The notes under the pieces: model-generated
The model's input: the letters and a program-made list of their open reading frames with translations, nothing else
What the model was told of the DNA's origin: nothing
Database searches by the model: none
Shown: one piece after another, positions 12,937-44,544 of the stretch
How the letters are laid out: the number at the start of each line of letters is the position of its first letter
Numbering within the stretch: the first letter of the stretch is position 1
Assembly: GCA_964421125.1 (NCBI GenBank)
Contig: CAYQVD010000004.1
Span: 930 to 64,929, forward strand
Direction: 5' to 3'
Source: an uncultured Bdellovibrionales bacterium
GTDB taxonomy: Bacteria > Patescibacteriota > Minisyncoccia > Moranbacterales > DUUL01
DNA: 64,000 nucleotides
Translations under genes and position numbers: made by a program

Positions 12937-13521
12937 ATGAACAAAGAAACACCACAACAAGAAACTATTAAAGGTCAAAAAGAAGTCTCAATAGAAAACC
13001 AGGAAAAGATAGATTTAAAATGGAATATAGTAAATAACCCTAACTCTACTGAGGAATATCTTGAAGACATCACTGATTCTAATAAACAACTTGAACGGTA
13101 CCAAGAAAGAGGGAACGGATTTAGACATCTCAGTATTTTTAAAGAAAATATTAATCAGGGAGAAATGATAAAGGAAGTGCTTAATGAAAATGGTGATAAG
13201 GATAAGTTTAATGAGGTTGATGAAAATTTACAAAATTATAAAGAAAAACTAAAAGAGACAGTTGATATAATTGCAAAAAAATGGGAAGACGATTTAAATA
13301 TGGGGCGATTAATGATTTTAGAAGAATTATATACAACTTTAGAGGATAATAAAGAAGCACAAAAATTTAAAGAAATGTTTGAAGAAAAAAGGAGACCAAA
13401 GGATTTAGTTAAAAATGAGGATGTGGTAGATAAAAAACCAAAACTGATTGATTATTCAGCCCAAGAACAAGAGGATAAACAGCAGACAGAAGAAATAAAA
13501 AAGAAGATAGATGAATTATAA
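12937..13521 (+). CDS. Acidic, Lys/Glu-rich hypothetical protein inserted between dnaA and dnaN
   Basis: 194 aa, low complexity, predicted coiled coil. Confidence 0.5.
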   Translation: MNKETPQQETIKGQKEVSIENQEKIDLKWNIVNNPNSTEEYLEDITDSNKQLERYQERGNGFRHLSIFKENINQGEMIKEVLNENGDKDKFNEVDENLQNYKEKLKETVDIIAKKWEDDLNMGRLMILEELYTTLEDNKEAQKFKEMFEEKRRPKDLVKNEDVVDKKPKLIDYSAQEQEDKQQTEEIKKKIDEL

Positions 13522-13589
13522 CTTATTAAATTTATAATTTAATATCCTGTTAACAACCTGTGAATTAGATGTTAAGGATGTTAATTAAA

Positions 13590-13796
13590 ATGTTAATAAG
13601 TTATCCAAAAACTACTCTACTTTACTATTAATAAGTTATCAACATTAATATTTAATACTTTTAAACTTTTTTATCCCCAAGTTTTAATGCTAATTATATT
13701 TATAAATAAAGGATTTTTATAACTTATTAACATAAAAGTTTATAGTAGTAATAATAGTATTTAATAATATATATAATTTATATAACTATACACACC
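13590..13796 (+). promoter_or_regulatory. Putative oriC core: DnaA-box-like sites (TTATCCAAA, TTATCAACA, TTATCCCCA) followed by an extremely AT-rich unwinding element just upstream of dnaN
   Basis: The boxes lie at about 13597, 13627 and 13671. Positions 13680-13795 are more than 85% A+T, and the region sits in the canonical dnaA-dnaN position. Confidence 0.55.
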
Positions 13797-14945
13797 ATGA
13801 AATTTACTTGTAAAACAAATAATTTAAAAGAAGCAGTTAGTAAAGTTGAAAGAATTGTTTCTAAACAAACAACCTTACCAATTTTAGCTAATATTTTAAT
13901 TAAAACAGAAAAAGGAAGGTTGTTAATTGGAGCAACTAATCTTGAAATAGCAATTCGTTCTTATGTGGGAGCTAAAATTGAAAAAGAAGGAGAAATAACT
14001 ATTCCAGCTAGAATATTAAGTGGTTTTTTAACTAGCATTAGAGATGATACTGTAAAATGTGAGTTAAGTGGAACAGAATTAAAGGTTAATTCTGAAAATC
14101 ATAAAATTAAAATAAAGGGGATGGAAGCAAAGGATTTTCCAATTATTCCTCAAGTGCCAAGTGAGTATTTTATTAAAATAAATTCTAATAATTTTAATAA
14201 AGCAATTCCAGGATTATTAGTTTCAGTTGCTCATAATGATACTAGACAGGAATTAAATGGGATATTAATTAAGTTTTCGTTGAAGGAAATTGTTTTTGCT
14301 TCAACAGATAGTTTTCGATTAACTGAAACTAAAATTGAATTACCAGAAGAGGCAATAGGTGAGGATTATGAGGTTTTTATAAATAATACACCGTCAATTA
14401 TTATTCCTTATTTAACTCTTTCTGAATTACAGAGAATTATTGAAGATGGTGAGTTTGAATTAATAATTAGTCAAAATCAATTATTTATTAAAAATGATTC
14501 AGTTAATTTAATTTCAAGGCTAATTAATGGAAGTTATCCAGAATATAATCAGGTTTTACCAGAAAAATATGAAATAGAAGCTAGGATTAATAAAAGCGAA
14601 TTTTTAAATGCTCTTAAAATTGCTTCGTTAGTAGCATCGGTTAATAATGGTGAAGTTAAAATTAGTAATTCTAAGAATAATAAATTTTTAAAAATATCCG
14701 CTGAGTCAGTTGATTCAGGAGAAAATATTTCTAAAATTGAGGCTGAGATAAGTGGTCCAGAATTTGAAGTTATATTTAATTGTCGTTATTTATTAGAAGG
14801 ATTGAATATAGTTGAATCAGATGTTGATAATATTTTATTGAAGTTAAATCCTAGTAAATCACCAGTTATGATTAGAGGATTGAAATCTGAAAAAGAGGAA
14901 GATGAAAAATTTTCTTATGTGATTATGCCTATAATTAAAGGATAA
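13797..14945 (+). CDS. dnaN: DNA polymerase III beta sliding clamp
   Basis: 382 aa; the opening MKFTCKTNNLKEAVSKVERIVSKQTTLPILANILIKTEKGRLLIGATNLEIAIRSYV is typical of DnaN. Confidence 0.9.
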   Translation: MKFTCKTNNLKEAVSKVERIVSKQTTLPILANILIKTEKGRLLIGATNLEIAIRSYVGAKIEKEGEITIPARILSGFLTSIRDDTVKCELSGTELKVNSENHKIKIKGMEAKDFPIIPQVPSEYFIKINSNNFNKAIPGLLVSVAHNDTRQELNGILIKFSLKEIVFASTDSFRLTETKIELPEEAIGEDYEVFINNTPSIIIPYLTLSELQRIIEDGEFELIISQNQLFIKNDSVNLISRLINGSYPEYNQVLPEKYEIEARINKSEFLNALKIASLVASVNNGEVKISNSKNNKFLKISAESVDSGENISKIEAEISGPEFEVIFNCRYLLEGLNIVESDVDNILLKLNPSKSPVMIRGLKSEKEEDEKFSYVIMPIIKG

Positions 14946-17742: not shown

Positions 17743-17865
17743 TAAAAAAAGAATATAAGATTAGAATGTTGGAAGATGTTTATTTATAAAAAAAGAATAT
17801 TTTTTGTTTGCTAATATTACAAAAGTAATTTATAATATGAAAAGACTTGTATTATAGAAATATAA

Positions 17866-18906
17866 ATGGAAAAGAAAAATAAAAAACAAGAACGACAATT
17901 ATTATTTAATAAGATTGCAATCTTTTTTGCGATTATGTTTTTGGCTTGGTTTAATTTGTCAAGGGCGGATATTAATGGTCTTAATGTTTTTCAAGATAAG
18001 GATCAAGATGGTATTTCTGATAAAGAAGAATATTCTTATGGAACAGATCCAGAGAAAAAAGATACTGATGGAGATGGTTATTCTGATAAGGTTGAAATTG
18101 AAAGTGGATATGATCCACTAAAACCTGCTCCAGGAGATAAGTTAATTGCGGATAAAGAGACCCAGGTCTTAGGAGATAACGATGTTAATCTTACAGAAGA
18201 GTTTTTTGAAGAAATTAAAAACGAAGAATTTGGTGAGGCGGCGATTTTAAATGAATTAATAACCACAGGAGATGTTACTGAAGAAGAATTAAGTGAATTA
18301 TATTCTGAAAGTGGAGGAGAAGGTGATTTAAGTGAGATTATTAATGGATTAGCTGATGAAAATTTAACCAAAGAAATAGAAGTTGAAATTTCCGAGGATG
18401 ATATAAAGATTCTGTCTAAGCCAGAAGGAGAAGAAGATGAGGTGAGACAAGTCGAAAAAGAGCAAATAGAAGGATACATGAGTTCAATTTTATATATTTT
18501 AGCAGTAAATCGTCCTTTTGAATTAGATGATATTAGTGATTTACCTAGTAAGATATCAGATTATATTTTTCAAATTGAAGGTGATATTGAAGGAGGAAAT
18601 TTAAAGGAGATACAAGAATATAAAAACACAATAAAAGAAACATTTGAACAAATCAAAAAACTTGAAGCCCCATATGTTTTAGTGGAACAGCATTTATCCA
18701 TTTTAAATATTTATCAAATTTTTTACAATGAAATTGATGAAATGAAACTATTAAGTGATGATGACCCTCTTACGCTTTTAGTTTATGCTGGAAAAATAGA
18801 AGGACTTTTTTTTGAACTTGAGCTTGTTCAACAAGAAATACAAGAAGTTTTAGATGAATATGAAATAGACTCCTTTGATTTATCATCAGTGGCTGATAAT
18901 TTTTAA
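17866..18906 (+). CDS. Secreted acidic protein with thrombospondin-type-3-like Ca-binding repeats (DKDQDGISDKEE / DTDGDGYSDKVE)
   Basis: N-terminal signal/TM segment, DxDxDG repeats, and Glu/Asp-rich remainder. Confidence 0.55.
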   Translation: MEKKNKKQERQLLFNKIAIFFAIMFLAWFNLSRADINGLNVFQDKDQDGISDKEEYSYGTDPEKKDTDGDGYSDKVEIESGYDPLKPAPGDKLIADKETQVLGDNDVNLTEEFFEEIKNEEFGEAAILNELITTGDVTEEELSELYSESGGEGDLSEIINGLADENLTKEIEVEISEDDIKILSKPEGEEDEVRQVEKEQIEGYMSSILYILAVNRPFELDDISDLPSKISDYIFQIEGDIEGGNLKEIQEYKNTIKETFEQIKKLEAPYVLVEQHLSILNIYQIFYNEIDEMKLLSDDDPLTLLVYAGKIEGLFFELELVQQEIQEVLDEYEIDSFDLSSVADNF

Positions 18907-18949
18907 GGATTTTTGGTAAATAAATTTATTAAAAGATTTATCTTAAGGA

Positions 18950-19882
18950 ATGTTAAATAAAAGTAAAAAAACTTTAATTATATTTTTAATAGCAATATTT
19001 TTTGTTTTTAATTTTAATATTAAAAAAGTCAATGCGGGAGGATTGTGGTTTGAGTCGATTGCAGCCGAAATAATGCATGAAACTTGGGCGGAACTGTCAG
19101 AACAAATTAAAGGGATATTTATTGCAAAACTTAAGCAAGAAGGACTGAAGGCCTTTGCTAATACAGTTAGGGGTGAAGCAGATGATCAGTTAATTACTAA
19201 TTTTAATTCCTATTTAAGTGGTGAAGTTAAAAATGAAACAGAAGATTATGTAACTAATCTTTATGCAACAGTAGCAGATAGAGATAGTGGGGGTGATTAT
19301 ACTGATATGGCAAGAGGAATAACGCAAAAGGCTATTCAAAACGATTTATCTTCTGAAGTAGGGGGATCAGAAATAGAAAATATACTTAATCCGGGTGCTA
19401 ACGTGAAAGAAGATCTTTTTAAAGCATCTTCTGGGGGAGGAGTTGAAGTTATCCCTCGGATATTAGGTGATAGAGAAAATTTATATGGAAGATTTATGGG
19501 TGAAGCTACAAATATAAGTAATACCAGAGAAGTTATTAAAGAAGCGAAGATAACGGAGGCAACTGGACATGGCTACAGGGGAAATGGAGAGGTTTCTGGA
19601 GAAGTACTTGCTAGTAAGGTTGCTAAAGCAGAGACACTACAACAAGACTTGATTGCTAATGCGACAACTGCTGGAGAGATAGCAGCAATAATGGGAACGG
19701 AATTTGATCCATCGGAGATATTAGCAGCATCTTTAAGATCAGGGAAAGAGGCTTTAAGGAGCCTGGCAAAAGGAGCTTTAGGACCTCTTTATAAAGGTGT
19801 TGCAGGAGTAACAGGTTTGCAGGCTGTAGATGCAATAGCAGGAGGAAATTATTCAGGAATGGGATCTGTTTCATTTCAATAA
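18950..19882 (+). CDS. Secreted Gly/Ala-rich hypothetical protein
   Basis: Signal peptide ...KKVNA|GG; no recognisable domain. Confidence 0.5.
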   Translation: MLNKSKKTLIIFLIAIFFVFNFNIKKVNAGGLWFESIAAEIMHETWAELSEQIKGIFIAKLKQEGLKAFANTVRGEADDQLITNFNSYLSGEVKNETEDYVTNLYATVADRDSGGDYTDMARGITQKAIQNDLSSEVGGSEIENILNPGANVKEDLFKASSGGGVEVIPRILGDRENLYGRFMGEATNISNTREVIKEAKITEATGHGYRGNGEVSGEVLASKVAKAETLQQDLIANATTAGEIAAIMGTEFDPSEILAASLRSGKEALRSLAKGALGPLYKGVAGVTGLQAVDAIAGGNYSGMGSVSFQ

Positions 19883-20047
19883 TAAGGTTTAATGCAAAAA
19901 TTTAAAATAAAAAATCATTATTTTAAAAACAAGCAATTTTTAAGCAGTTGTTATTTTTTAATGAGTAATTATATTTTTAAAATTAAAAAAACAATAGAAG
20001 ACAGATTGTTTCTGTTTTATTTTAAGTTAGAAAATTTTACTGGAAAG

Positions 20048-22057
20048 ATGAGAAATAAAAAAACAATTAGTTTTGTGGCTTCATTTTTTTTATTACTTAT
20101 ACCATTTTTTTCTTTTGCAACAGAAGAGGGAGTCAAGGCTCCTGACTTATTGGAAGAACCTACCGGTGGCTTTTGGGGAAATATGTTTTTTAAAGGAACG
20201 CTTACTATTTTTTATTTAATATTCAAACTTATTGCATATATTTATTTTTTCTTTTTAAAAATTTTAGATTTTACGATATCTGGTAGATTATTTGATGATG
20301 TTTTTTTCTCCCCAACATCTTTAGTTGTTTTAAATACTTCATGGGCAGTTATTCGTGATTTTTTTAATTTATTTTTTATTCTTATTATAGTTTTTATTGC
20401 AATTTCAATCATTTTGGGAATTGATAAATATAATGATAAAAAATTAATTTTTAGAGTGATAATGGCAGCAGTTTTGGTAAATTTTTCAAAAGCAATTTCT
20501 TTAGTGATTATTGATATTTCACAATTAACTATGGGATTTTTTAGTCAAGCAATTACTTTGGTTGGGAATAATTTCATTAATGTTTTTGCTGATAAGCTTA
20601 GTATGGGAAAGGTATTAGGAGGCTTTCCATTTGACAATTCCGCTACTTTTTTTGTTGCATTATTGATATCAATTATTTTTTTGTTTTGTTTGACAGTTTT
20701 AATAGGAATTTTAGCGATAGCTATGGTAATTCGTTTAGTGGCTTTTTGGGTTTTAGTGATTCTTTCTCCAATGGCTATGTTTGGACTTTCTCTTCCGGGA
20801 ACTGCAATTGGAAAGTTAACAAAAAAATGGTTTGAAAAAATGGTTTCATGGGCATTTTTTGGTCCGTTAATGATGTTTTTTTTATGGTTAGCTTTGATAG
20901 TGGTTAGTACGGCTTCAGCGGCTATAACTAGTGGCGATGCTGGTATGTTTGGATCGGTATCCGTTGGTGTTAATCAAAAGGCCTTAGAACAAATGATTTC
21001 TGAAGTTTTAAAAATGCTAATTCCTTTTATCGCAGGAGCTTATTTGCTTTGGTATGGATTTGATCAATCCAGAACATTGTCTCAAGGAGCGGCAAGTGCA
21101 GTTATAGGGTGGGGAGGGGAAAATATGAGTAAATGGGGAAAAACAGCTGCTAAGGGAGTTGGTTATACCGCAGCAGCTCCTCTTGTTGCAGCAGGGGCAG
21201 TAGGAGCTTATGGAGCGAATATGGCGGCAGGAGGAAGTAAAAATCCTCTTAGATTAAAAGAGGATTTAAAAGCTAGATATGAAGGAACAAAAAATCGTGT
21301 AAAAAATTCAAAAATAGTTAAGCCTTTTACAAAAGAAGAAAGAGAAAAAGACTATAAAAATAAAGTTGCTAGGTATTCTGGTGAAACAGAAGAACTTGAA
21401 CGAAGTGTAAATAATGAGGAAGTGAAAAAACTTGAAGAGGATAAGTCTCTTACTAAGGATGATGCTATGTCAAAAATGAATAACACAAGGGCCAGTAAAG
21501 AATCAAGAGTTGCAGCAGCAATGTATTTATCAAAAAAAGGATTTTTAAATAAAGGAAAAGAGCATTCAGCGGCTGAGGAGGCGATGAAATTAACAGGAAA
21601 TAATTCACTCAAGGATACTTTTGATAAAAATTCAAAAGATAAAAATTCTCTTGGTAGATACGAAAGTAATATTAATAAACAAAAAGCTATTGTTAAAAAG
21701 GAAGGGGTAATTACAAATGAAAAGCAGATTGGAATAGAAGCGGAAAACCGTGCAAAGTCTGAAGTTAAAAAAGATATAGACAAAAAATCTCTTGATGACA
21801 TATTAAAAATGGATAAAGAGCTTCTTGAGGATAAAGAAATTTTTGATCATATTAAAAAGATGGGATTTGATCTTAATAATGCTGTTAAAAAAGGCAATAA
21901 GAACTTAACAGGAAAAAAGGCAAGAGCAATTAGAGGGAATCTTAATCTACAAGAAGATAAAAAAACAGTTAAGAATATAAGAACTCATTCTGATGTACAA
22001 AGAGACTTAAGACTTAGAAATGACAAAGAGATAAAAAAACATTTTCCTGAAAAATAA
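20048..22057 (+). CDS. VirB6/TrbL/PrgH-like polytopic membrane protein with a charged C-terminal tail (T4SS channel-component candidate)
   Basis: Signal peptide plus about 8 TM segments, then a ~280-aa Lys/Glu-rich tail. It lies upstream of the PrgI-like and VirB4 genes. The likely start is ATG at 20048 (MRNKKTISFVASFF...) rather than the track's 19892. Confidence 0.5.
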   Translation: MRNKKTISFVASFFLLLIPFFSFATEEGVKAPDLLEEPTGGFWGNMFFKGTLTIFYLIFKLIAYIYFFFLKILDFTISGRLFDDVFFSPTSLVVLNTSWAVIRDFFNLFFILIIVFIAISIILGIDKYNDKKLIFRVIMAAVLVNFSKAISLVIIDISQLTMGFFSQAITLVGNNFINVFADKLSMGKVLGGFPFDNSATFFVALLISIIFLFCLTVLIGILAIAMVIRLVAFWVLVILSPMAMFGLSLPGTAIGKLTKKWFEKMVSWAFFGPLMMFFLWLALIVVSTASAAITSGDAGMFGSVSVGVNQKALEQMISEVLKMLIPFIAGAYLLWYGFDQSRTLSQGAASAVIGWGGENMSKWGKTAAKGVGYTAAAPLVAAGAVGAYGANMAAGGSKNPLRLKEDLKARYEGTKNRVKNSKIVKPFTKEEREKDYKNKVARYSGETEELERSVNNEEVKKLEEDKSLTKDDAMSKMNNTRASKESRVAAAMYLSKKGFLNKGKEHSAAEEAMKLTGNNSLKDTFDKNSKDKNSLGRYESNINKQKAIVKKEGVITNEKQIGIEAENRAKSEVKKDIDKKSLDDILKMDKELLEDKEIFDHIKKMGFDLNNAVKKGNKNLTGKKARAIRGNLNLQEDKKTVKNIRTHSDVQRDLRLRNDKEIKKHFPEK

Positions 22058-22063
22058 AAATAT

Positions 22064-23107
22064 ATGAAAATAAATAAATTACAACTTAATCCTGTTTTTG
22101 CGAGAATTAATAGTGATGACAAAGTTGATGGAGATGAGTTTGAGATATGGTATGAAGAAAAATTTCAAAAAGCTTCGCTTGAAGTGAGACTTGGAATTGG
22201 TGGTGACACGGTAGAAGAAGAAATTCAAAAAATTTGTGAGAAATTTGGGATTTCTGATTGGCAGAAAATTGGATATACAGCCAGGATAATTAGAGATATT
22301 TTTTGTGATGATCTCAAAGAAGACGGAATAAAAAAGATAGCAATTGAGAATATTAATATTGAAAAAGCTGATTTAGCAGTTTTTCTTCAGTTAATTAAAG
22401 AAATAGTAAAAAAAATTAAACAAGCTGGAGAAAAAGAATATACTGAAATAATTGATAAATTAACACTAAAGGAAGCAGTGAGGCTATATCCAGAAATTCA
22501 AAAACAACAAATTTCAGAGAAAGCATTGAGACCTGAAGGTAGCGAATATTTAGTGGCGGGTAATGTAAAAAATTGGTTAACAAATTATTTTCAAGAAGTA
22601 GGGGGGAATAAGCATAGTTCTCTTGAAAGAAGTGATTATTTGTTTAAATCAAAGAGCGTTAAGGGTTTAGATCAAGATGAAATAGAGAATCTAGGAGTGA
22701 TTTTAAAAGCCTTTGATGATGATTCTCTTGTGGCAGTTGACAAGGAATTTAAGGAGATTGATTTTAACGAAAGTAGAGCGTTGGATAATGGGAAAAGAAA
22801 ATTAAATGGTATTATGAAAAGTTATGATAATAACTTGGAAAATGATTTAGTTGAAAATAAAGGAATAGAAAGAATTTCAAAACAACCTGAATATAATTTA
22901 AAACAAAAAGATAAATTTGAAAAAATTGAGAGTACTCCTAGGTTTGAAGTGGACGGAAATTCCAAAAAAAATAATTCAGAAATTCCAAGTAATAATGTCA
23001 TTAGTCTTAAACAAACAGATCCGAATCTTCAGGTAGAAAAAAAAGAAAAGAAAAAAAGTAGAAGTGAAAACGATCAAAATGTTTTAGATTTGAGTGATTT
23101 TGTATAA
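22064..23107 (+). CDS. Hypothetical soluble protein within the T4SS-like cluster
   Basis: 347-aa ORF lying between the VirB6-like and PrgI-like genes; no recognisable domain. Confidence 0.5.
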   Translation: MKINKLQLNPVFARINSDDKVDGDEFEIWYEEKFQKASLEVRLGIGGDTVEEEIQKICEKFGISDWQKIGYTARIIRDIFCDDLKEDGIKKIAIENINIEKADLAVFLQLIKEIVKKIKQAGEKEYTEIIDKLTLKEAVRLYPEIQKQQISEKALRPEGSEYLVAGNVKNWLTNYFQEVGGNKHSSLERSDYLFKSKSVKGLDQDEIENLGVILKAFDDDSLVAVDKEFKEIDFNESRALDNGKRKLNGIMKSYDNNLENDLVENKGIERISKQPEYNLKQKDKFEKIESTPRFEVDGNSKKNNSEIPSNNVISLKQTDPNLQVEKKEKKKSRSENDQNVLDLSDFV

Positions 23108-23119
23108 GCAAATAATAAA

Positions 23120-23521
23120 ATGCGTTATCAAGTCCCACAATTTATTGATATAGAAGACAAAATTGCTTTTCAGTTAACCGCTAAGCAATTGGGTTGGTTT
23201 GCTATTGGTGGAGTAATGCTATTTGTTCTTTGGACTTTTGTTTCGTTTGTCCTGTTTGTTGTTTTTGGCATTATGATCATTGGTGCCTCAGCTGGATTAG
23301 CCTTTGTTAAGATTAATGGAGCGTCGTTATTAGAATATCTTGGTAATAGTTCAACATTTTTTTTCAAACCAAGAATTTTTATTTGGAGAAAAACAGTTAG
23401 TTCTGCAGAAGGTTTATATCAAAAAGCTAGCCCTAATTTACAGAAAAATAATAAAACAAGAGTAAAAAAGAAAAAAATTGAAGATTTAGACAAAATAGTA
23501 AACATTCTTAATTCACAGTAA
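23120..23521 (+). CDS. PrgI-family / VirB3-like small membrane protein
   Basis: MRYQVPQFIDIEDKIAFQLTAKQLGWFAIGG followed by two TM segments is the typical PrgI opening and architecture. Confidence 0.5.
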   Translation: MRYQVPQFIDIEDKIAFQLTAKQLGWFAIGGVMLFVLWTFVSFVLFVVFGIMIIGASAGLAFVKINGASLLEYLGNSSTFFFKPRIFIWRKTVSSAEGLYQKASPNLQKNNKTRVKKKKIEDLDKIVNILNSQ

Positions 23522-23538
23522 CTTTAAAGTTAACGGTT

Positions 23539-24216
23539 ATGCAAGAAAATAAAAACAAAGATAAATATCCATCCTTTCAGGATCAAATGGATATTGCTGA
23601 AATAAAAGAAAATGCAGTTGTCTTAAAAGATGGTTCTTTGAGAGCAGTTCTAGCTGTTTCTGCGATTAATTTTGATTTAAAATCTGACCAAGAACAAGAA
23701 GGACTAATTTTTGCTTATCAAGGATTTTTAAATGCTTTTGATTTCCCTTTTCAAATAGTTGTTTCTTCAAAGAAATTTGATGTTGATCCATATTTATCAA
23801 TGTTGAAAAGAAAAGGTCGAACAGAAACAAATGAATTACTTCGAAGACAAATAGAGGATTATACAACTTTTGTTGGTGAATTAGTTGGAATGGCTAATAT
23901 TATGACTAAACTTTTTTATATTATTATTCCTTTTTACTCAATAGAAAATAAACAAAAAGGATTTTTAAGTAAGATTTCTTCTACTATTAATCCAAGAAAA
24001 ACTATCTATCAAAAAAACGAAGATTTTGAAACATATAAAAATCAACTTTTTCAAAGAGTTGATCAAATAAGTGAAACATTATCTGGCACAGGTGTTAAAA
24101 TGGTTCCACTTAGCACAGAAGAATTAATTGAACTTTTTTATAATTCATATAATCCATCTGAATTTGAGTATGTAAAAATGGAGGATTTAAATAAAATGGA
24201 ATTGGAGAAGAAGTAA
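23539..24216 (+). CDS. Hypothetical T4SS-associated protein
   Basis: 225-aa ORF lying between the PrgI-like and VirB4 genes; any resemblance to a VirB4 N-terminal domain is speculative. Confidence 0.45.
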   Translation: MQENKNKDKYPSFQDQMDIAEIKENAVVLKDGSLRAVLAVSAINFDLKSDQEQEGLIFAYQGFLNAFDFPFQIVVSSKKFDVDPYLSMLKRKGRTETNELLRRQIEDYTTFVGELVGMANIMTKLFYIIIPFYSIENKQKGFLSKISSTINPRKTIYQKNEDFETYKNQLFQRVDQISETLSGTGVKMVPLSTEELIELFYNSYNPSEFEYVKMEDLNKMELEKK

Positions 24217-24234
24217 AAATAAGAAATAATTAAG

Positions 24235-26085
24235 ATGTTCAAGTTATCTAAAAAGAAAAAAGAAAATAAAGAAAAGCAACAAATTGCTCAAGTTCCGAAT
24301 ATTAATAAGAATGATATTCAAGAGCAAAATAGAATTTACAGAGAAGGTCTAGTCAGGGTTTTAGATTTTATTGCTCCTTCAGCTTTAGCTATTTCTTCTT
24401 CTAATATTCAAATTGGAGAAGTTTATTGTCGAACGTTGTTTATAACAGCTTATCCAAAAATTTTACCAATTGGATGGATGGGGGGGATTATTTCCTTGGA
24501 TTTGCCAATGGATATATCTATTTTTGTTCACCCAATTGAAACTGTTAAGATAATGAAGTCTTTGCGAAAAAAAACCACTCAAATTCAATCAGAGCTTGAC
24601 ATCGAATCAAAAAAGGGATTAACCCGTAATCCAATGCTTGAAATGGCGTATAGAAATGTAGAAGAATTAAGAGATAAATTGCAAGAAGGAGTTGAAAAGT
24701 TTTTTAAGATGGGCGTTTATGTAAATGTTTTTGGAAAAAGTTCTGAAAAGCTTGATAAAAATGCTTCATATCTAATCACAACTCTTGAGTCACAATCAAT
24801 TTATGCGAAAAAATCAATTTTTCGGATGAAAGAAGGTTTTGACTCATGTTTACCATTATGTACGGATAAGCTTATGACTGGAATTGATTTTAATACAGCA
24901 CCTTTATCAACTTCATTTCCTTTTATTTCTGCTGATGTGACTTCTAATGAAGGAATTTTGTATGGAGTAAATAAGCACAATAATTCTTTGATTCTTTTTG
25001 ATCGTTTTACAATGGAAAATGCCAATATGGTAGTTTTTGCAAAATCTGGAGCTGGTAAAAGTTATGCGATTAAATTAGAATTATTACGTTCATTAATGCT
25101 TGGAACGAGTGTTATTGTCATTGATCCAGAAGACGAGTATCGATATTTAGCAGAGGCAGTAGATGGAAGTTTTATAAAAATTTCTCTTAACTCTCCTCAT
25201 CATGTTAATCCTTTTCAGTTAGCTATTGAAAAAGGTGTTGATATAAGCGAATTATTGAGATCTAATATCGCTAATTTACTTGGTCTTTTTAAGTTAATGC
25301 TTGGAAGTATAACCCCAGAAGAAAGCGCTGTTCTTGAGAGAGCGATTAGGGAAGTTTATGCATCAAGAGATATCTCAGAAAAAACTTCGCCAGAAAGATT
25401 AGCGGGGATTACCATGCCAATTTTATCTGATTTATATGAAGTTTTGAGAAATATGCAAGGCTCAGAGGATTTAGCAATTAGACTAGAAAAATATACAAAA
25501 GGAGTCTTTTCGGGGTTCTTAAATCATCCATCAAATATATCACTTAATAATCAGTTAGTAGTTTTTAACATTAGAGACCTTGAGGAAGAATTGAGACCAA
25601 TTGCTATGTATCTAATTTTACATCATATTTGGAATGAAATTCGAGTAGATATTAAAAAACGAATAATTGTGGTTGATGAAGCTTGGGTAATGATGGAACA
25701 TGAAGCTGCTGCAAAATTCTTATATTCAATTGCAAAAAGAGTTAGAAAATATTATGGAGGATTAACTACTATAACTCAAGATATTTCCGATTTTATGTCT
25801 TCAAAATATGGAAAACCAATTGTTTCAAATTCTTCTATGCAACTTCTTATGAAACAATCACAATCTTCGATTGATGTAGTGGCTAATACATTTTATTTAA
25901 CAGATAGAGAAAAATATCTTTTAATGAATAGTGGAGTAGGGGAAGGGATCTTTTTCGCTGGTTCTAAGCGAGCTGCAATTCAGGTGGTGGCTTCGTATAA
26001 TGAGGATAAACTTGTGACAACTGATCCAGCACAGCGCTTAGAAATGAAAAAAGAAGAAGTTTCTGATGAGATTGAATTACTTTAA
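24235..26085 (+). CDS. virB4: VirB4/TrsE/PrgJ-family type IV secretion ATPase
   Basis: ...DFIAPSALAISSSNIQIGEVYCRTLFITAYPKILPIGWMGG..., Walker A FAKSGAGKSY, Walker B IVVDEAWVMM, and ...TTITQDISDF. Confidence 0.85.
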   Translation: MFKLSKKKKENKEKQQIAQVPNINKNDIQEQNRIYREGLVRVLDFIAPSALAISSSNIQIGEVYCRTLFITAYPKILPIGWMGGIISLDLPMDISIFVHPIETVKIMKSLRKKTTQIQSELDIESKKGLTRNPMLEMAYRNVEELRDKLQEGVEKFFKMGVYVNVFGKSSEKLDKNASYLITTLESQSIYAKKSIFRMKEGFDSCLPLCTDKLMTGIDFNTAPLSTSFPFISADVTSNEGILYGVNKHNNSLILFDRFTMENANMVVFAKSGAGKSYAIKLELLRSLMLGTSVIVIDPEDEYRYLAEAVDGSFIKISLNSPHHVNPFQLAIEKGVDISELLRSNIANLLGLFKLMLGSITPEESAVLERAIREVYASRDISEKTSPERLAGITMPILSDLYEVLRNMQGSEDLAIRLEKYTKGVFSGFLNHPSNISLNNQLVVFNIRDLEEELRPIAMYLILHHIWNEIRVDIKKRIIVVDEAWVMMEHEAAAKFLYSIAKRVRKYYGGLTTITQDISDFMSSKYGKPIVSNSSMQLLMKQSQSSIDVVANTFYLTDREKYLLMNSGVGEGIFFAGSKRAAIQVVASYNEDKLVTTDPAQRLEMKKEEVSDEIELL

Positions 26086-26134
26086 GTTACGATAAGAATC
26101 TTTATAAAAAAAGAATGTTATAAGGGAAATTTAA

Positions 26135-26812
26135 ATGAAAGCAAAAATATTAAATAAAAAAAATCAATTTTATGTAACATTATTAATTAGTGTTATTATT
26201 ATTGGTTTGCAATGGTTATTAATGAGAGATGTTAAAACTAATGGCGTTTGGGAATGGCTTCTTTCTTCTCTTTTTTTGTTTTTTATTTTACCAATAATCG
26301 TTATTAAATTTTATTTTAAAGAAAATCTTTCTAGTTTTCATTTATCTTTTAATTTTGGATTACGAGAAATTTTAACTACATTAATTTCTGGAGGAATTTT
26401 TATTGGAATATTTTTGTTATTAATGGTAAAATTTAGTTGGTATGAAAATTTCCCTTTTTCAGATTTTTACTTAGGAGATAAAAACGTTTTTCTTTTTATT
26501 TGTTTTTTAATTTCTCCATTAGTTATTTTTTTTAGACAATTTTTCTTTTTGGGATTTTTGTTAAAATCAGCTGAAAAAGTAGTTGGAGCATGGAGGGGTG
26601 TGATAATTTTTTTTATTTTTCTTTTTCTTGCATTTTTTATATCGGGAAAAGATTTTTCAGTTGTGGTTTTTTCTTTAACTTTATTTGTGAATATTTTTCT
26701 TGCATGGTTAGTTTTAAGAACGAGAACAGTCATTTTAACATCTTTGGTTGCTTGGATTATTAGTATGGTAATTGATTTTACTATTTTTTATCAGATAAGT
26801 CTTATTAGATAA
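26135..26812 (+). CDS. Polytopic membrane protein, possibly a degenerate CPBP/Abi-like protein
   Basis: About 6 TM segments; no clear catalytic motifs. Confidence 0.4.
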   Translation: MKAKILNKKNQFYVTLLISVIIIGLQWLLMRDVKTNGVWEWLLSSLFLFFILPIIVIKFYFKENLSSFHLSFNFGLREILTTLISGGIFIGIFLLLMVKFSWYENFPFSDFYLGDKNVFLFICFLISPLVIFFRQFFFLGFLLKSAEKVVGAWRGVIIFFIFLFLAFFISGKDFSVVVFSLTLFVNIFLAWLVLRTRTVILTSLVAWIISMVIDFTIFYQISLIR

Positions 26813-26824
26813 TATGATATATAA

Positions 26825-29800
26825 ATGAAAACAAAAATTAAAAAAATATTAAGCATTTTTCTTGTTATTTTTCTTTTTATTCCATATATTTCTTTGGCTG
26901 AAAGTTTTGGTATTAGCGGAGGCAATCTTGATTCTCTTGGCACTCTAGGTAGTGTTGGTAGTCTAGGTAGTCTTTTGGGTATTAGTAGTGTTAGCGAATT
27001 TGTAACGCAAGGATCAGCTACAGTAGAAGATCGCTATGGGTTTGATAAAAATATGATGCGTCGGGCTCAGCAAAAAGAAGATGTTCCAACGGCTGAAATA
27101 AATTTTAGCAACACTTCTCCTGAAGAAGGGGATTTTGTTTCTGCCACAGCTTATTCACAAAGATTCAAAAATGTTGCTGAAGATCTTTATTATACTTGGT
27201 ATATTGTTCATGTTGATCAAAAGGGAGATTATGTTGATTCTTCTGGTAATAAAATTATCAAGGACTGTGATGAAGAAGAAGACAAAGAAGAGTGTAAGGA
27301 GTGGAATGAGTCTGCGGTGATTGAAAAAGGAAAAGTGGAAGCGATGGGAAGAATTGCAAGAGGGGATTTTGATCCTGCCCTTTTTGGGGTGGATTATGAT
27401 GCAATTGTTAATCAAGGGGTCAATAACGATGGCACTGTGTATATTGATGATGATGATGGTTTTTATACCCCCTTTGGCGGAAGAGAAGGGGTTGGAGGAA
27501 GAGATGGTGACCGTGATGAAATTGGAGGGATTGGTTCATATGAGACAGAAGACGAAAACATGAAAGACAAAAAAAGAGGAATTGTTCGAGGTGATCGAAT
27601 TACCCGTTGTTATCGACACAATTTTGGAAATGTTTCAGGTGGAGTAGAAGATGTGGATTCAGGAAAGGATTTAATTGTTGAATGTAAGCATAAGTTTGCA
27701 GATCCTGATTATTTAGAAGATTATAGTGGGTATAAAGAAATGGGTGACACGATTAAGAAATACACTATTTCATGTGTTAATCCAGGAAAAATAGGAGACA
27801 ATAAGTTTGATGAAGAAGATGAGGCTTGTTGGAGATTGAATCCAAATAGCGCAGATACTGACGGGGATGGTTTCGTGGATGAAGCAGATCTAGCAGGGGT
27901 AGGTCAGTCAACTTTTTCTTGGAGATACAAAGAAGGGGATCGGGTTGGAGTGATTATTGAAGGAACATCAATGACGGCTATAAATGATGATGGCTCTATT
28001 CCAGATGAAGAAAGTGATTATAAAGATGAAATAGCAGAAACAGCTGGTATTCAAGAAGAAGAAAATACTTTATATATAGGAGGAGGATTTATTGAAAAAG
28101 CTTCTCTTGTTGTGGCTATAAGAGAGATTTTTAATAGAGAATTTGATTCTGCTTCTTGGAATTCTGCAAATGACGAGACGAATATTGAAGATCTTATTGA
28201 AGCAATTGATTCAGCTGGAGTTACAAAAACCGGAGGAATTATTAATGCAGAGGAATTAGAAGAAGCGCTTCATGACGGAAAAACTATTAGTAGTCTTCAA
28301 AGAGAATTTTCTAATAATCATATGGAAGTGGATGATTATATGAATGATGATTATATTGAAATAACAGGTCAGTTTAGTGCAAAAGATCTTTTCTTAACTT
28401 TAGCAGGGTATTTTCGTATAAATCAATATGAACTGAGAGATATTATTATGGATCAATCTTTAGGAGTCCAATTAGAAATTGCTGAAAAAATAATTCCCAG
28501 ACTTTATAATATGTATGATTGGACATTGATGACAGAAGCAGAGGCATTGCAAACATTAGAGGACGATGTTTGGTATTGTAATTCTTGTGGAGGACCATAT
28601 GAAATCACCTCCTTTCTTTTTGAATATTGGTCAGGAACAGACAAAAACGATCCAGAGGAATACTATGAACTTACTCAAGAAGATATAAATGGCTGGTATT
28701 TTAATGAATTAGTTTTAGGAGATGCAGGATATAATCCTCTTATAACAACTCCTCAGTATCCATATGCCGTGTCAATTCCTGTTGATAGTGTTTATCATTT
28801 TTTTGAAGATGGAATTAATATGTTTAGTACTAGTTTAGTGCAGACTTCATCTGAAGTAGAAACGACTCTTGAAGATGGTCTTCATGCAGCTTTTATTTCG
28901 AGTTCAAGCGGTTCTTCTCAGGATGATTTAGAAGACGACTTAGCAGAATTTGATTCAAAAAGTGCGTCGAGTGCTTATTATAAGATAATGTGGGCAGGAT
29001 TGGGTATTTGTTCAAAGGAGAATGATGAAGATGATGAGGGTGGTTTAGATGGAAATGAATGTGCAAAAAATCCTGAGGATTATTATGAGAACAAGAATTA
29101 TGAAGATTATGACATGGATGAGAATCCAGAGGATGGAAGTAAATATGACCCAACAGAATATGGCTTTAATTATTTAGAAACTAGACCTGTTCTTCTAAAA
29201 GAAGCTGAAACTCTTAAAACAGCACTAATTTATTCCCCAAGAAATCCTTTGTATGATGATCTAAATCCATTTCTTTCTGATACGATAACTATTTATTCAC
29301 AACTTGAGGACGCAACAGTGGATAGTAATTTTGTTCATTATGATTGGGAGATATATAAATGTAGTAGCTTAAATGATGATACTTGTACGGAAAGTGATGC
29401 TAATTGGCTTACGAAGAAATGTGCAGGTTCAACAGGAAAGGTTCTAGGTCTTTCTTTAGAAGAGTGTACAGAAAAAAGTACGGGGACAATAGAGAATGTA
29501 ACAATGTTTACGTCTGATTCACTTGCTTCGGGAATGGGTGTTTCTAGTATTAGTTTTACTCCTAATGGATATTATTCTAATGAATATGAAACAGGTAATT
29601 TATTGACAGATGACAGTGAGGGAAAACTTTTCTTTAAAATTGCCTTAAAAACAAAAGAGTTGAATTCTTCTGATACAATGGCACTTTCAACTACTATGAT
29701 TCAAGTGGACAAAAAAGATCTTAAGATAGAATTTTACAAAACACGTAAAAATAGTGACGGAGAATTTACTTATCTAGATGAAAAAGAAGCTGAAATGGAG

Positions 29801-30721
29801 ATTTGTAATGATGGATTCTATAGTCTTCTTTGCCCGGTTTATCCTTTTCAGTTATTAGCAGCTAAAGTGGCTCATGATGACGATGAAAAAATTCATGGTT
29901 ATTTTTGGGAGATAGACGGAGAAAGAATCGATGCTCCTCAGAATTGTGAAGGAGATGGCTGTAATCAGGACAAGGAGGATGCTTTAATTTATTTTCCAAT
30001 AACAAGAGCTTTTGAAGATATACAGGAAATAACATTAAATGTTCAAGTAGAAAAGACGTTTAATTCAGGAAAGGAGAGTGTAATTAAAAACTTAACTACA
30101 ACGAGATATATTTCAGTTAAGAATCCAATGGCTTTTATTAAATCAGAACCTCCTTATTCAGCTTGGAGTAGGGTTGAAAGAGATCCTGATTATAGTGGAG
30201 ATTATGTAAATATCTTTTATACTAATCCGGGCAAAAGAGTTGAATTTCGAGCTGATTTAGTCCCTTCTTATCTTGATCTAAATAATGATGAAGTTAGTTT
30301 AATATGGTCTCTGAATGGAAAAAAGGTTGATGAATATTTTATTGAGAATAATCCAGAGTTAGATGTTTTTGTTAATGAAGATAAAATTTCTTTTATTATA
30401 CCTAGTGTTGATTTTAAAGGAATGACGTTAGGAGTTAATGTAATTAAGCAACTTTCTAATAATGAAGATATAACTACTGCGTGGGGGGTCAATATTGGAA
30501 AAGATAAGTTAGAGGATTTTTCTTCTATTTCAATTAGGCCAGATTTATCAGCTTTAAATATAACTGGAGATATTGGTTCAGTGAAAATGTTTTTTGCTTC
30601 TACTGTTAAAAATGCACCGGAATATATTTTGTTTTCTTTGAAATTATCAGTGATTATTATGTTGATATGGGGTGCGTTATTTGGGTCAACAATTTTCTTG
30701 AATACTTATAAAAAAGATTAA
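26825..30721 (+). CDS. Giant (1298 aa) secreted acidic surface protein with a C-terminal TM anchor and TSP3-like Ca-binding motifs
   Basis: Signal peptide, NPNSADTDGDGFVDEADLAGV, many Cys residues, Asp/Glu-rich, C-terminal hydrophobic segment ...LKLSVIIMLIWGALFG. Confidence 0.7.
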   Translation: MKTKIKKILSIFLVIFLFIPYISLAESFGISGGNLDSLGTLGSVGSLGSLLGISSVSEFVTQGSATVEDRYGFDKNMMRRAQQKEDVPTAEINFSNTSPEEGDFVSATAYSQRFKNVAEDLYYTWYIVHVDQKGDYVDSSGNKIIKDCDEEEDKEECKEWNESAVIEKGKVEAMGRIARGDFDPALFGVDYDAIVNQGVNNDGTVYIDDDDGFYTPFGGREGVGGRDGDRDEIGGIGSYETEDENMKDKKRGIVRGDRITRCYRHNFGNVSGGVEDVDSGKDLIVECKHKFADPDYLEDYSGYKEMGDTIKKYTISCVNPGKIGDNKFDEEDEACWRLNPNSADTDGDGFVDEADLAGVGQSTFSWRYKEGDRVGVIIEGTSMTAINDDGSIPDEESDYKDEIAETAGIQEEENTLYIGGGFIEKASLVVAIREIFNREFDSASWNSANDETNIEDLIEAIDSAGVTKTGGIINAEELEEALHDGKTISSLQREFSNNHMEVDDYMNDDYIEITGQFSAKDLFLTLAGYFRINQYELRDIIMDQSLGVQLEIAEKIIPRLYNMYDWTLMTEAEALQTLEDDVWYCNSCGGPYEITSFLFEYWSGTDKNDPEEYYELTQEDINGWYFNELVLGDAGYNPLITTPQYPYAVSIPVDSVYHFFEDGINMFSTSLVQTSSEVETTLEDGLHAAFISSSSGSSQDDLEDDLAEFDSKSASSAYYKIMWAGLGICSKENDEDDEGGLDGNECAKNPEDYYENKNYEDYDMDENPEDGSKYDPTEYGFNYLETRPVLLKEAETLKTALIYSPRNPLYDDLNPFLSDTITIYSQLEDATVDSNFVHYDWEIYKCSSLNDDTCTESDANWLTKKCAGSTGKVLGLSLEECTEKSTGTIENVTMFTSDSLASGMGVSSISFTPNGYYSNEYETGNLLTDDSEGKLFFKIALKTKELNSSDTMALSTTMIQVDKKDLKIEFYKTRKNSDGEFTYLDEKEAEMEICNDGFYSLLCPVYPFQLLAAKVAHDDDEKIHGYFWEIDGERIDAPQNCEGDGCNQDKEDALIYFPITRAFEDIQEITLNVQVEKTFNSGKESVIKNLTTTRYISVKNPMAFIKSEPPYSAWSRVERDPDYSGDYVNIFYTNPGKRVEFRADLVPSYLDLNNDEVSLIWSLNGKKVDEYFIENNPELDVFVNEDKISFIIPSVDFKGMTLGVNVIKQLSNNEDITTAWGVNIGKDKLEDFSSISIRPDLSALNITGDIGSVKMFFASTVKNAPEYILFSLKLSVIIMLIWGALFGSTIFLNTYKKD

Positions 30722-30757
30722 TAAAAAATGAGAAATATTTTATACTAGTTTTAATTT

Positions 30758-31876
30758 ATGACAAAAAAAATTTTTATTATTTCTTCTATTCTTTTTTTAA
30801 TTGCTGGGATTTATTTATTTGTTCAGTTTTTTTTGTTTCAAGAGAAGCCTATTATTCATGAGAATAAAACAAAGGATGATTTAAGCGTATTAAGCAATAA
30901 AGAAAATAGTCTTGATAAAAAGATAGAGAGAGTTATTAAAGAGGAGGTAGTAACTCCCTTAATGGATGTTTCTGGTAATAAAATTTTATACTTTAATCAA
31001 GGTAATTTTCTTTTATCAAACTTGAAAGGTACTGTAAAGTCATCAATAGGTGCCTATCCATTTAATGTGTTGGAAGAAATAAAATGGTCTTCAGATAATA
31101 ATCAGGCAATTATCAAAGATGCTGATAAATATTACATTTTTGATATTAGCAGTTTAGACGCAAAACCTTTTAAGTCAGATGCAGATAATCTTATTTGGGG
31201 AAGTAAAAAAGACCAGGTTATTTATAAGTTTTATGACTCAAATTCTCAGAAGCGATCATTAAATATTGCTGATTCAAGTGGGGCAAGTTGGGAAGAGATT
31301 ACAGAAATTCCTTTTCGTTATGCTGAAATAGAAGTAAATTCAAAAGATAAAAAAGTGGCTCTTTTTTCTTTGCCGAAAGCTTCTCAGGAAACACAGCTTT
31401 TTATTGTGGATTTATTAAAAAAGGAGAAAAGAGAAATTGAAAAGAAGTATAAGGGAGCAGATTATCGATGGTCACCAAATGGAGAAAAACTTCTTTTTTC
31501 TTATACAAAAGATAGCGGAAAAACTAGCTTAGCTATTTTAAATATTAATGATGAAAGTGTTTCAGAATTGAATTTTCCAGGATTAGTAGATAAGTGCGTT
31601 TGGCTAAGTGATTCAATCGGTATTTATTGTGCTAATCTTACTTATAGTGATACAGAAGTTGTTCTTCCTGACGACTGGGAGTCTGGAAAAATATCTTCAT
31701 CAGATACTTTTTGGAAAATAGATACTGTTAAGGGAGAACAAAAAAGAATTCTTGAGTTAAATGAAATAAATGAAAATGTTGATGCAACTTCTTTGTTTAT
31801 GGATAAAGATGAAAAGATTCTGTTTTTTGTAGATAAAAAAACTAATAATTTATTTAGAATTAAACTAGAAAACTAG
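30758..31876 (+). CDS. N-terminally anchored TolB-like/PD40 beta-propeller-like protein
   Basis: N-terminal TM segment; ...YRWSPNGEKLLFSYTKDSGKTSLAILNIND... is PD40-like. Confidence 0.5.
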   Translation: MTKKIFIISSILFLIAGIYLFVQFFLFQEKPIIHENKTKDDLSVLSNKENSLDKKIERVIKEEVVTPLMDVSGNKILYFNQGNFLLSNLKGTVKSSIGAYPFNVLEEIKWSSDNNQAIIKDADKYYIFDISSLDAKPFKSDADNLIWGSKKDQVIYKFYDSNSQKRSLNIADSSGASWEEITEIPFRYAEIEVNSKDKKVALFSLPKASQETQLFIVDLLKKEKREIEKKYKGADYRWSPNGEKLLFSYTKDSGKTSLAILNINDESVSELNFPGLVDKCVWLSDSIGIYCANLTYSDTEVVLPDDWESGKISSSDTFWKIDTVKGEQKRILELNEINENVDATSLFMDKDEKILFFVDKKTNNLFRIKLEN

Positions 31877-44497: not shown

Positions 44498-44503
44498 CAA
44501 ATG

Positions 44504-44535: not shown

Positions 44536-44544
44536 ATTTCAAGT

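Follow-up and report, generated by a model that had tools for sequence, protein, structure and literature searches.

The subject of this report is a block of ten co-directional genes (17866–31876, + strand, with intergenic gaps of 6–165 nt) encoding a type IV secretion system (T4SS), which lies in a 64,000-nt stretch of the chromosome of an uncultured member of the Patescibacteria (contig CAYQVD010000004.1). This stretch is referred to below as the window, and all searches on this genome cover those 64 kb; the Pfam scan took in every open reading frame (ORF) of 200 or more amino acids (aa) and most of the shorter ones. Read 5′ to 3′, the ten genes encode an acidic protein with TSP3 repeats, a 310-aa protein of no recognized family, a polytopic VirB6-like protein, a cytoplasmic 347-aa protein, a PrgI/VirB3-like protein, a TrsD-like protein, the VirB4 ATPase, a protein with about seven transmembrane segments, a 1298-aa surface protein and an anchored β-propeller. 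Related loci used for comparison carry L numbers.

The ATPase gene (virB4, 24235–26085, +) corresponds to the C-terminal two-thirds of a canonical VirB4. Its product matches the NCBIfam model NF045971 ('VirB4-like conjugal transfer ATPase, CD1110 family') with an E value of 1e-108 and 364.5 bits, against a cut-off of 325, and Pfam P-loop_TraG with an E value of 1.4e-31, together with AAA_10, DUF87 and CagE_TrbE_VirB. Among solved structures the best match is the C-terminal domain of Thermoanaerobacter VirB4 (4ag5, 1.5e-47), followed by TrwK of R388, and both the Walker A (KSGAGKS) and the Walker B (IIVVDEAW) motif are intact when read from the translation. The gene directly upstream (23539–24216, +) encodes a TrsD-like protein, which corresponds to the N-terminal domain of VirB4 in free-standing form. 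The NCBIfam TrsD/TraD model NF041427 matches it at 5.2e-9, though its 36 bits do not reach the curated cut-off of 200, and two VirB4 models align with it over their N-terminal parts (positions 96–289 in that of Mbov_0397). The protein falls in the precomputed Pfam family PF26593 (TraC-like) and is 31% identical (5e-32) to the gene upstream of VirB4 on a Pontibacillus megaplasmid that is compared in detail below. The two ORFs lie in the same frame, separated by two in-frame TAA codons (TAA-AAA-TAA), and as they are separate in all relatives the split represents a real two-gene arrangement rather than a sequencing error. Matches of both proteins to a PHROG 'terminase large subunit' family were set aside, as they reflect shared ATPase ancestry and not a phage.

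Upstream of the TrsD-like gene, 23120–23521 (+) encodes a small membrane protein of the PrgI/VirB3 type, with a hydrophobic hairpin of about 40 residues, which matches Pfam PrgI (PF12666) at 7.4e-9 and 36.5 bits (gathering score 27) and TcpE at 0.004 and is homologous to the syntenic Pontibacillus gene (9e-5). As single sequences, neither the TrsD-like nor the PrgI-like protein found a match among PDB sequences. In two more distant Patescibacteria loci (L014, 1281–2225; L016, 6370–8769) the PrgI-family domain forms the N-terminus of proteins of 314 and 799 aa, respectively, whose C-terminal region carries a CarboxypepD_reg-like domain.

The putative channel subunit is the VirB6/TrbL-like product of 20048–22057 (+), for which the start at 20048 is favoured over one at 19892 by the N-termini of homologues. 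The N-terminus is signal-like, about six transmembrane helices are predicted and a tail of about 270 aa is rich in lysine and glutamate. Direct searches with hidden Markov models (HMMs) from Pfam and NCBIfam gave no match to VirB6, TrbL or PrgH, and transitive Pfam matches and a fold search were therefore relied on. Run against 1.84 billion proteins, a profile of the membrane domain found 24,075 cluster representatives; among 60 strongly related members of this family, 11 match Pfam TrbL/VirB6 (best 1.2e-6) and three match TrbL_4, with no other family recurring among the 60. An AlphaFold2 model of residues 1–430, with a mean predicted local distance difference test score (pLDDT) of 67, was searched by Foldseek against 350,542 PDB chains; the top three matches are TrwI/VirB6 chains of R388 (probability at least 0.99, E about 0.01), with low TM-scores of 0.22–0.26 when normalized to the query and 0.32–0.37 when normalized to the target, and the fourth is a DotA–IcmX entry from the Legionella Dot/Icm system. 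The family profile run against PDB sequences reached TrwI at an E value of just 1.3, amid coiled-coil noise from the charged tail. In addition, the protein is syntenic with, and detectably similar to, the large polytopic protein of the Pontibacillus megaplasmid. From these profile, model and synteny results the VirB6-like assignment appears moderately well supported. The original prediction, a note made from the letters and ORFs of this stretch alone, had named VirB4, the PrgI-like protein and the polytopic VirB6-like protein and had left 23539–24216 undecided. The first two names are borne out by model scores above the respective cut-offs and, for VirB4, by the structural match and intact Walker motifs; the third holds through the transitive Pfam matches, the TrwI fold match and synteny, though not by direct HMM search; and the undecided gene can now be assigned as TrsD-like (VirB4-N) from NF041427 and the Pontibacillus synteny. 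With a VirB6-like protein, a VirB3-like protein and a VirB4 in two pieces with intact ATPase motifs, the predicted inner-membrane core of a monoderm-type T4SS is complete.

Between the VirB6-like and PrgI genes lies 22064–23107 (+), which encodes a cytoplasmic 347-aa protein with no assigned fold. Hydropathy indicates no transmembrane segment, and searches of Pfam, NCBIfam, PHROG and PDB sequences returned no match, as did a profile of ten homologues run against PDB and Pfam; a word-based homologue search found just four proteins. The gene is nevertheless kept in the same position in L004, L005, L007, L009, L011, L013 and L017, and in part in L008, and its product is conserved in a core, NW-x-DY...G...H...ER..YL, and, after a disordered linker, in a short C-terminal motif, (V/I)-(L/V)-DL-(S/K). 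An apparent fusion of this protein to VirB6 in L005 and L009 proved to be merely a low-complexity N-terminal extension lacking transmembrane segments, so that a link between the two proteins through gene fusion falls away.

The block adjoins the replication origin. The dnaA (11352–12761, +; Pfam Bac_DnaA, 5e-70) and dnaN (13797–14945, +; Pfam DNA_pol3_beta domains) genes precede it, the block beginning 3 kb downstream of dnaN, and the sign of the GC skew flips near 12 kb (the switch falls between the 10–12 kb and 12–14 kb bins). After dnaN come a DciA-like gene, a UbiA-family gene and a methyltransferase gene; directly 3′ of the block are two O-antigen-ligase-like (Wzy) genes and a glycosyltransferase family 2 (GT2) gene, as identified by Pfam, and the rest of the window is housekeeping in character, with genes for methionyl-tRNA synthetase (MetRS), IF-2, TatD, a CCA-adding-type nucleotidyltransferase and a ComM-like Mg-chelatase ATPase and seven tRNA genes. 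A scan for promoters and terminators performed at chance level and so does not delimit the operon; this applies also to a possible promoter upstream of the TSP3 gene (TTGCTA-17-TATAAT, 17808–17836).

A search with VirB4, taking one genome per species, returned 15 loci, 14 of them patescibacterial by synteny or label, although several of the labels are other names assigned automatically. VirB4 identity is 42–89% in the Patescibacteria relatives, 27% in a metagenome-assembled genome of the Clostridia and at most 35% in the best plasmid proteins, which come from Bacillota and Actinomycetota. The gene order is shared with at least eight related Patescibacteria genomes, which are Moranbacteria-like going by the names on related proteins. 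It runs dnaN–DciA–UbiA–TSP3–(18950 homologue)–VirB6-like–22064 homologue–PrgI–TrsD–VirB4 in its 5′ half and VirB4–seven-transmembrane protein–giant protein–propeller–Wzy–Wzy–GT2–DUF389–MetRS in its 3′ half. The whole order is visible on both sides in four relatives (L004, L007, L009 and the closest, UBA2193, represented by L012/L013), while shorter contigs show parts of it; in L009 a polynucleotide phosphorylase (PNPase) gene replaces the dnaN–UbiA genes. Relatives in which the order is seen have VirB4 proteins 55–89% identical to that encoded here, and where VirB4 is 67–69% identical the accessory proteins are just 25–40% identical. Judged from this synteny the order of the block is evidently old and vertically inherited.

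These results bear on the possibility that the block represents an integrated conjugative element, whole or as a remnant, and that the relaxase and coupling protein genes and the origin of transfer (oriT) belonging to it lie just outside the region examined. The best-scoring VirB4 model is that of a conjugal-transfer ATPase, the closest homologues of VirB4 outside the Patescibacteria are on plasmids and about 32 kb of the source contig lies to the left of the window. However, no relaxase (MOB) family and no VirD4/TcpA coupling protein was found among the ORFs scanned, nor was a coupling protein found among ten extra ORFs in the flanks of the relatives. The scan of these ORFs likewise gave no match to a VirB11 family, which is uninformative since Gram-positive-type T4SS are not known to carry VirB11. 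There is no integrase-bounded or compositional island: GC content is about 31% (range 0.26–0.34) throughout the window, the skew is continuous, the block matches its flanks and the nearest tyrosine recombinase gene (44545–45489) is 12.7 kb past the block. Housekeeping synteny and matching GC content and skew therefore argue that this is not an integrated conjugative element, and the same housekeeping neighbours at 55–69% VirB4 identity point to long vertical descent; in addition relaxases were reported in just 103 of the 3,035 genomes covered by the survey discussed below (PMC12102498). We consider a conjugative element extremely improbable. The lack of a relaxase, VirD4 and VirB11 near the cluster, and the non-conjugative use that the original prediction drew from it, are both upheld, the former now across the ORFs scanned in 64 kb.

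The block is thus, very probably, a vertically inherited, origin-proximal T4SS of the Patescibacteria clade, derived from the conjugation machinery of monoderm bacteria (the mating-pair formation class MPF-FATA) and no longer carried in a conjugative element. Several points weigh against this interpretation. The VirB6 assignment is indirect, as it lacks a direct HMM match and depends on a Foldseek E value of about 0.01 with low TM-scores; no VirB8-like or VirB1-like protein was recognized in the block by Pfam or NCBIfam; the searches extend over 64 kb, so that a VirD4, relaxase or pilin gene may lie elsewhere, and the survey places VirD4 far from virB4 in many Patescibacteria (PMC12102498); and the synteny reaches into housekeeping genes, so that conserved order by itself is no proof of a joint function of the T4SS and the envelope genes.

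Systems of this kind have been described across the phylum. In a survey of 3,035 Patescibacteria genomes VirB4 was found in 2,417, and a single clade inside the monoderm MPF-FATA class holds nearly all of these proteins (Quinonero-Coronel et al., 2025, PMC12102498). The component most often associated with VirB4 was TrsD, PrgI/VirB3 and VirB6 were encoded nearby, VirB8 and VirB1 could rarely be recognized and a pilin lay near virB4 in 1,135 assemblies; most VirD4 homologues were encoded far away from virB4, and the T4SS genes of Paceibacteria and Microgenomatia were located near dnaA/dnaN. Transposon insertion sequencing (Tn-seq) has shown that the T4SS genes SEML1_0006–0019 are essential for epibiotic growth of Southlakia epibionticum, whose system is without recognizable coupling and relaxase proteins (Wang et al., 2023, PMC10633639), and a 2025 review lists these Patescibacteria systems as a new T4SS type (PMC12857230). 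The block described here is a further copy of this phylum-wide system, so that the interpretation offered by the original prediction is supported and was already published (PMC12102498, PMC10633639, PMC12857230). It agrees with the surveyed systems in having the TrsD-like gene directly upstream of virB4, PrgI/VirB3 and VirB6 nearby, a dnaA/dnaN location and monoderm type, no relaxase, no coupling protein near virB4 and a VirB8 and VirB1 that are hard to recognize. It differs in that there is no VirB2-like pilin in the 64 kb, whereas pilins are essential in Southlakia, and that virB4 is not directly followed by a gene for a peptidase or lysozyme. The components named in the parts of the survey used here do not include the TSP3 protein, the giant protein with immunoglobulin (Ig)-like domains, the propeller or the 22064–23107 protein (PMC12102498).

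The Trs system of the Staphylococcus plasmids pGO1/pSK41 (MPF-FATA, gene order TrsC–TrsD–TrsE) represents, according to the survey, the only classical subclass with a free-standing TrsD next to VirB4 (PMC12102498), and it is the NCBIfam TrsD/TraD model that matches 23539–24216. pGO1 is, however, a conjugative plasmid with a relaxase and a coupling protein and, in the same source, no recognizable VirB6 (PMC12102498), whereas the present block has a VirB6-like protein and no conjugation-specific genes. The Prg/Pcf system of Enterococcus faecalis pCF10 (PrgH–PrgI–PrgJ) shares the order VirB6-like, VirB3-like, VirB4, the match to Pfam PrgI and the presence of a large Ig-domain surface protein in the locus, where the likeness to the adhesin PrgB is one of generic Ig fold and not of family. 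Unlike pCF10, the block has an extra cytoplasmic gene between the VirB6-like and PrgI genes and a split VirB4, and no counterpart of the PcfC coupling protein, the PcfG relaxase, the PrgK hydrolase or the VirB8-like PrgL was recognized. The best plasmid match to VirB4, with 34.7% identity, is a CD1110-family VirB4 on the megaplasmid of Pontibacillus sp. ALD_SL1 (NZ_CP062975). Here the same order of large polytopic protein, small PrgI-like protein, TrsD-like protein and VirB4 is found, and pairwise similarity is detectable for all four. The megaplasmid has features of its own, a gene for an Mbov_0395-family pilin-like protein upstream and one for a 1050-aa peptidoglycan metalloendopeptidase downstream, and this Bacillota cluster is without homologues of the 22064–23107 protein, the giant protein and the propeller.

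The remaining genes of the block encode predicted envelope proteins specific to the lineage. The first gene (17866–18906, +) specifies an acidic protein (isoelectric point 4.05) with two bacterial TSP3 calcium-binding repeats (Pfam TSP3_bac, 9.4e-12) and one N-terminal hydrophobic segment (residues 11–29), and homologues occupy the same position in L004, L007, L009, L013 and L017. It is followed by the gene for the 310-aa protein (18950–19882, +), which has a signal-peptide-like N-terminus and no Pfam, NCBIfam or PHROG match save one to MG280 at an E value of 0.025; its family profile found nothing meaningful among PDB sequences (one spurious low-complexity match), and homologues are detectable in L013, L004 and L009, while L007 has an ORF of the same size without detectable similarity. 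Downstream of VirB4, hydropathy predicts about seven transmembrane segments in a 225-aa protein (26135–26812, +), which has no Pfam or NCBIfam family match and has homologues in L004, L005, L006, L007, L008, L009 and L012.

The next gene (26825–30721, +) encodes the 1298-aa acidic surface protein, referred to here as the giant protein, which begins with a signal peptide and is anchored in the membrane at its C-terminus. It belongs to a family of at least 70 homologues, every one annotated as hypothetical, the named ones coming from Candidatus Moranbacteria. A coverage profile and an alignment to the family member P0035 define two family-wide regions (residues about 53–391 and 714–1287), and there is one invariant DTDGDG calcium-type motif. 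Between these regions residues 392–713 (27998–28963) form an acidic insert of about 320 residues, part of which is covered by just one or two of the other 69 members; it makes this protein the longest of its family, in the one genome without a neighbouring pilin gene. An AlphaFold2 model of the 849-aa P0035, built from 69 sequences (pLDDT 83.4), predicts a signal peptide, tandem Ig/cadherin-like β-sandwich domains and a C-terminal transmembrane helix, and Foldseek matched it to Sidekick, contactin, protocadherins, the Ig-like domains of PrgB (8beg, 1.4e-8), an RTX adhesin and an archaeal S-layer protein. The modelled fold would fit a cell-surface stalk or adhesin, as a generic fold match and not a family assignment. 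The last gene (30758–31876, +) encodes a 372-aa N-terminally anchored β-propeller of the PD40/TolB type, recognized by weak but concordant matches (TolB TIGR02800, 8.8e-5; PD40, 0.027; DPPIV_N, 0.016; precomputed PF26550, Tricorn_2nd); 12 of the 17 top matches of its family profile among PDB sequences are TolB, at sub-threshold E values of 0.13–0.28. Although L010 and L017 are more distant and differ in much else, they too keep the propeller gene 3′ of virB4. With regard to the original prediction, a TolB-like propeller is sustained by the mutual consistency of these weak matches (TIGR02800, PD40, Tricorn_2nd and PDB TolB), and a role of the giant protein as adhesin-like partner would fit the modelled string of Ig/cadherin-like domains, including the PrgB match. 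The TSP3-like repeats claimed for the flanking proteins are present in the 17866–18906 product, reduce to a single DTDGDG-type motif in the 1298-aa protein and are lacking in the 310-aa protein.

The block also stands out by what its relatives carry in addition. The cluster includes a T4SS pilin gene (PF18895) in all nine relatives whose contig covers the region, and seven representative genes have Pfam support. In eight of the relatives (L004, L005, L006, L007, L009, L010, L012 and L017) it is flanked by the propeller gene on one side and by the giant-protein homologue, or the site of it, on the other, and in L011 a pilin-domain protein is encoded downstream of VirB4. The product has a signal peptide and two hydrophobic helices; six pilin genes (L012, L004, L010, L006 and L017) score 22.8–36.2 bits against Pfam T4SS_pilin PF18895, four of the six passing the gathering score of 26.6, and those of L005, L007 and L009 were assigned by homology to the Pfam-tested ones. 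In the present genome the stop codon of the giant-protein gene (30721) and the start of the propeller gene (30758) are separated by a 36-nt junction (30722–30757) without a pilin gene, and the same 36-nt junction is found in an independent Logan assembly (L001). A profile of the relatives' pilins run against the six-frame translation of the window with all filters off gave a best E value of 1.3, no small ORF with a signal peptide and two transmembrane segments was found across the 64 kb, and there is no VirB2-like pilin (PF18895 or PF04956) within the window. This genome thus appears to run its T4SS without a locus-encoded VirB2-like pilin, unless the gene lies outside the window, and on present sequence evidence has apparently lost or relocated a pilin that is essential in Saccharibacteria. 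The original prediction noted neither this absence nor the split of VirB4. As pilins were frequent but not universal in the survey (PMC12102498), the absence lowers the typicality of the system and not its membership of the clade. In L017 two tandem T4SS_pilin (PF18895) proteins (12516–13430 and 13458–14327; 32.7 and 32.9 bits) are fused, the first to a YkuD L,D-transpeptidase domain and the second to an SLT lytic transglycosylase domain, and these cell-wall enzyme fusions could supply the 'missing' VirB1 function.

A second gene is also missing. In L004, L005, L006, L008, L009 and possibly L011 a gene for a protein with a coiled coil and three transmembrane segments follows VirB4; it is absent both here and from the closest relative, UBA2193. 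Loss of this gene, which would lie between those for VirB4 and the seven-transmembrane protein, and of the pilin gene found in all nine covering relatives might mark the inactivation of a system that is decaying in this genome. Against this, all ten ORFs are intact and full-length when compared with their homologues, the Walker motifs are preserved, the giant protein is enlarged rather than shrunk and the arrangement is identical in independent assemblies (the sequence of the window recurs unchanged in two further assemblies, one copy being at about 32493–96492 of an ENA contig). Decay therefore seems very unlikely.

The position of the pilin gene is relevant to the extent of the T4SS itself. 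It could be that the system comprises just the four core genes and 22064–23107, and that the TSP3, 1298-aa, seven-transmembrane and propeller proteins are ordinary envelope neighbours that belong with the Wzy and glycosyltransferase genes. The synteny does take in unrelated housekeeping genes, the two O-antigen-ligase-like genes and the GT2 gene directly follow the block, and tandem Ig-like domains are a generic surface fold, with archaeal S-layer protein among the matches. On the other hand, a T4SS pilin gene between the giant-protein gene (or its position) and the propeller gene in eight relatives argues that both are parts of the T4SS module rather than simply adjacent to it, the propeller is retained downstream of VirB4 in L010 and L017, and the ten genes are co-directional and closely spaced. 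Restriction of the system to the core genes is possible in our estimation, if on the improbable side.

We therefore return to the Patescibacteria-clade T4SS as the preferred explanation and consider how it may work. By analogy with solved T4SS structures, a VirB4 hexamer together with TrsD would dock on VirB3/VirB6 and power the passage of macromolecules through a single membrane. The TSP3 protein, the anchored Ig-like-domain protein and the anchored propeller may form an extracellular contact apparatus directed towards a host cell, a role suggested by their topology and fold and by the position of the pilin gene in relatives, and the 22064–23107 protein might be a lineage-specific accessory or substrate-handling subunit. 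The organism itself, a small-genome bacterium, is probably episymbiotic. Given that neither a relaxase nor a coupling protein was found among the ORFs scanned, the cargo is most likely protein or other host-interaction cargo rather than conjugative DNA; the Southlakia Tn-seq data point the same way.

Transport in the opposite direction has also to be considered, namely that the machine imports nucleic acids or other macromolecules from the host, like archaeal Ced or Helicobacter ComB, and so feeds a cell unable to make nucleotides. According to a 2026 preprint, a cultivated member of the phylum may feed on the RNA of its host as a parasite; the preprint calls VirB4 'presumably associated with macromolecule transfer' and links PNPase and VirB4 to this parasitic use of host RNA. 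In L009 the PNPase gene (806–2905; two RNase_PH domains, KH and S1) is directly upstream of the T4SS block, although this adjacency is seen in that one Moranbacteria locus only. VirB4 has weak similarity to CedB (48 bits), but this score is far below the cut-off of 700 and reflects general ATPase homology, and no other Ced or ComB component is among the Pfam and NCBIfam matches. Moreover, deletion of comEC in Southlakia abolishes competence and not viability while the T4SS is still essential (PMC12857230), so that essentiality is not exerted through transformation. For these reasons an import function is thought unlikely.

A more far-reaching proposal is that this lineage has dispensed with the VirB2-like pilus and contacts its host through the enlarged Ig-like protein, with its insert of about 320 aa, and the propeller, and that the 22064–23107 protein would be a previously unrecognized core subunit which recruits substrate in place of a coupling protein. 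We advance this as speculation and doubt that it is correct in full. The core picture of the system is unchanged by the present analysis; what is new are the Ig-like family of the giant protein, the missing pilin gene and the conservation of 22064–23107. Few machines have been shown to be essential for an epibiotic lifestyle, the Patescibacteria T4SS among them, and three conserved but unannotated partners can now be pointed out, the Ig-like-domain protein, the anchored propeller and the cytoplasmic protein encoded between VirB6 and VirB3. The pilin-less locus also provides a natural comparison, as close relatives with and without the pilin gene share an otherwise identical locus.

Several other features of the window were recorded. 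The dnaA and dnaN genes are usually adjacent to each other; here a 194-aa, highly charged ORF with no family match (12937–13521, +) lies between them. A cluster at 44424–46880 consists of a tRNA-Val gene, the XerC/D-type tyrosine recombinase gene mentioned above (− strand) and a gene for a peptidoglycan hydrolase with two LysM domains and a CHAP domain (45591–46880), which lies 19 kb from virB4 and is the only candidate in the window for an analogue of VirB1. Five TrmB-family regulators are encoded (1881–2666, 42634–43422, 48558–49310, 52521–53336 and 55687–56430), an unusually high density in 64 kb for one regulator family, in addition to a double winged-helix protein of the HTH_24/AsnC type (7517–8548). 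Beside the tRNA-Ala and tRNA-Arg genes a 229-aa ORF (9651–10340, −) contains the sequence LAVLYLGEGGK, which by eye resembles the LAGLIDADG homing-endonuclease motif; the ORF has no Pfam match at 1e-5.

A group I intron (Rfam RF00028, 87.9 bits, 50805–51044) interrupts a tRNA gene (50783–51092, +) that ARAGORN missed. The joined exons give a 73-nt tRNA, and five equivalent choices of junction all lead to the anticodon GAA (tRNA-Phe). A further shift of the junction alters the anticodon, so that the identity as tRNA-Phe depends on those choices and on the resemblance of the exons to E. coli tRNA-Phe, which we take from inspection by eye.

Stop codon usage in the 54 window ORFs of at least 100 aa is strongly skewed, with TAA in 46, TAG in eight and TGA in none, and the long frames in the window that end in TGA all overlap real genes. 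Recoding of TGA was set aside, as the long ORFs are all intact under translation table 11 and relatives do use TGA as stop (7 of 14 in L007, 3 of 14 in L004 and 1 of 15 in UBA2193); a strong bias is more likely than recoding as the reason for the lack of TGA stops.

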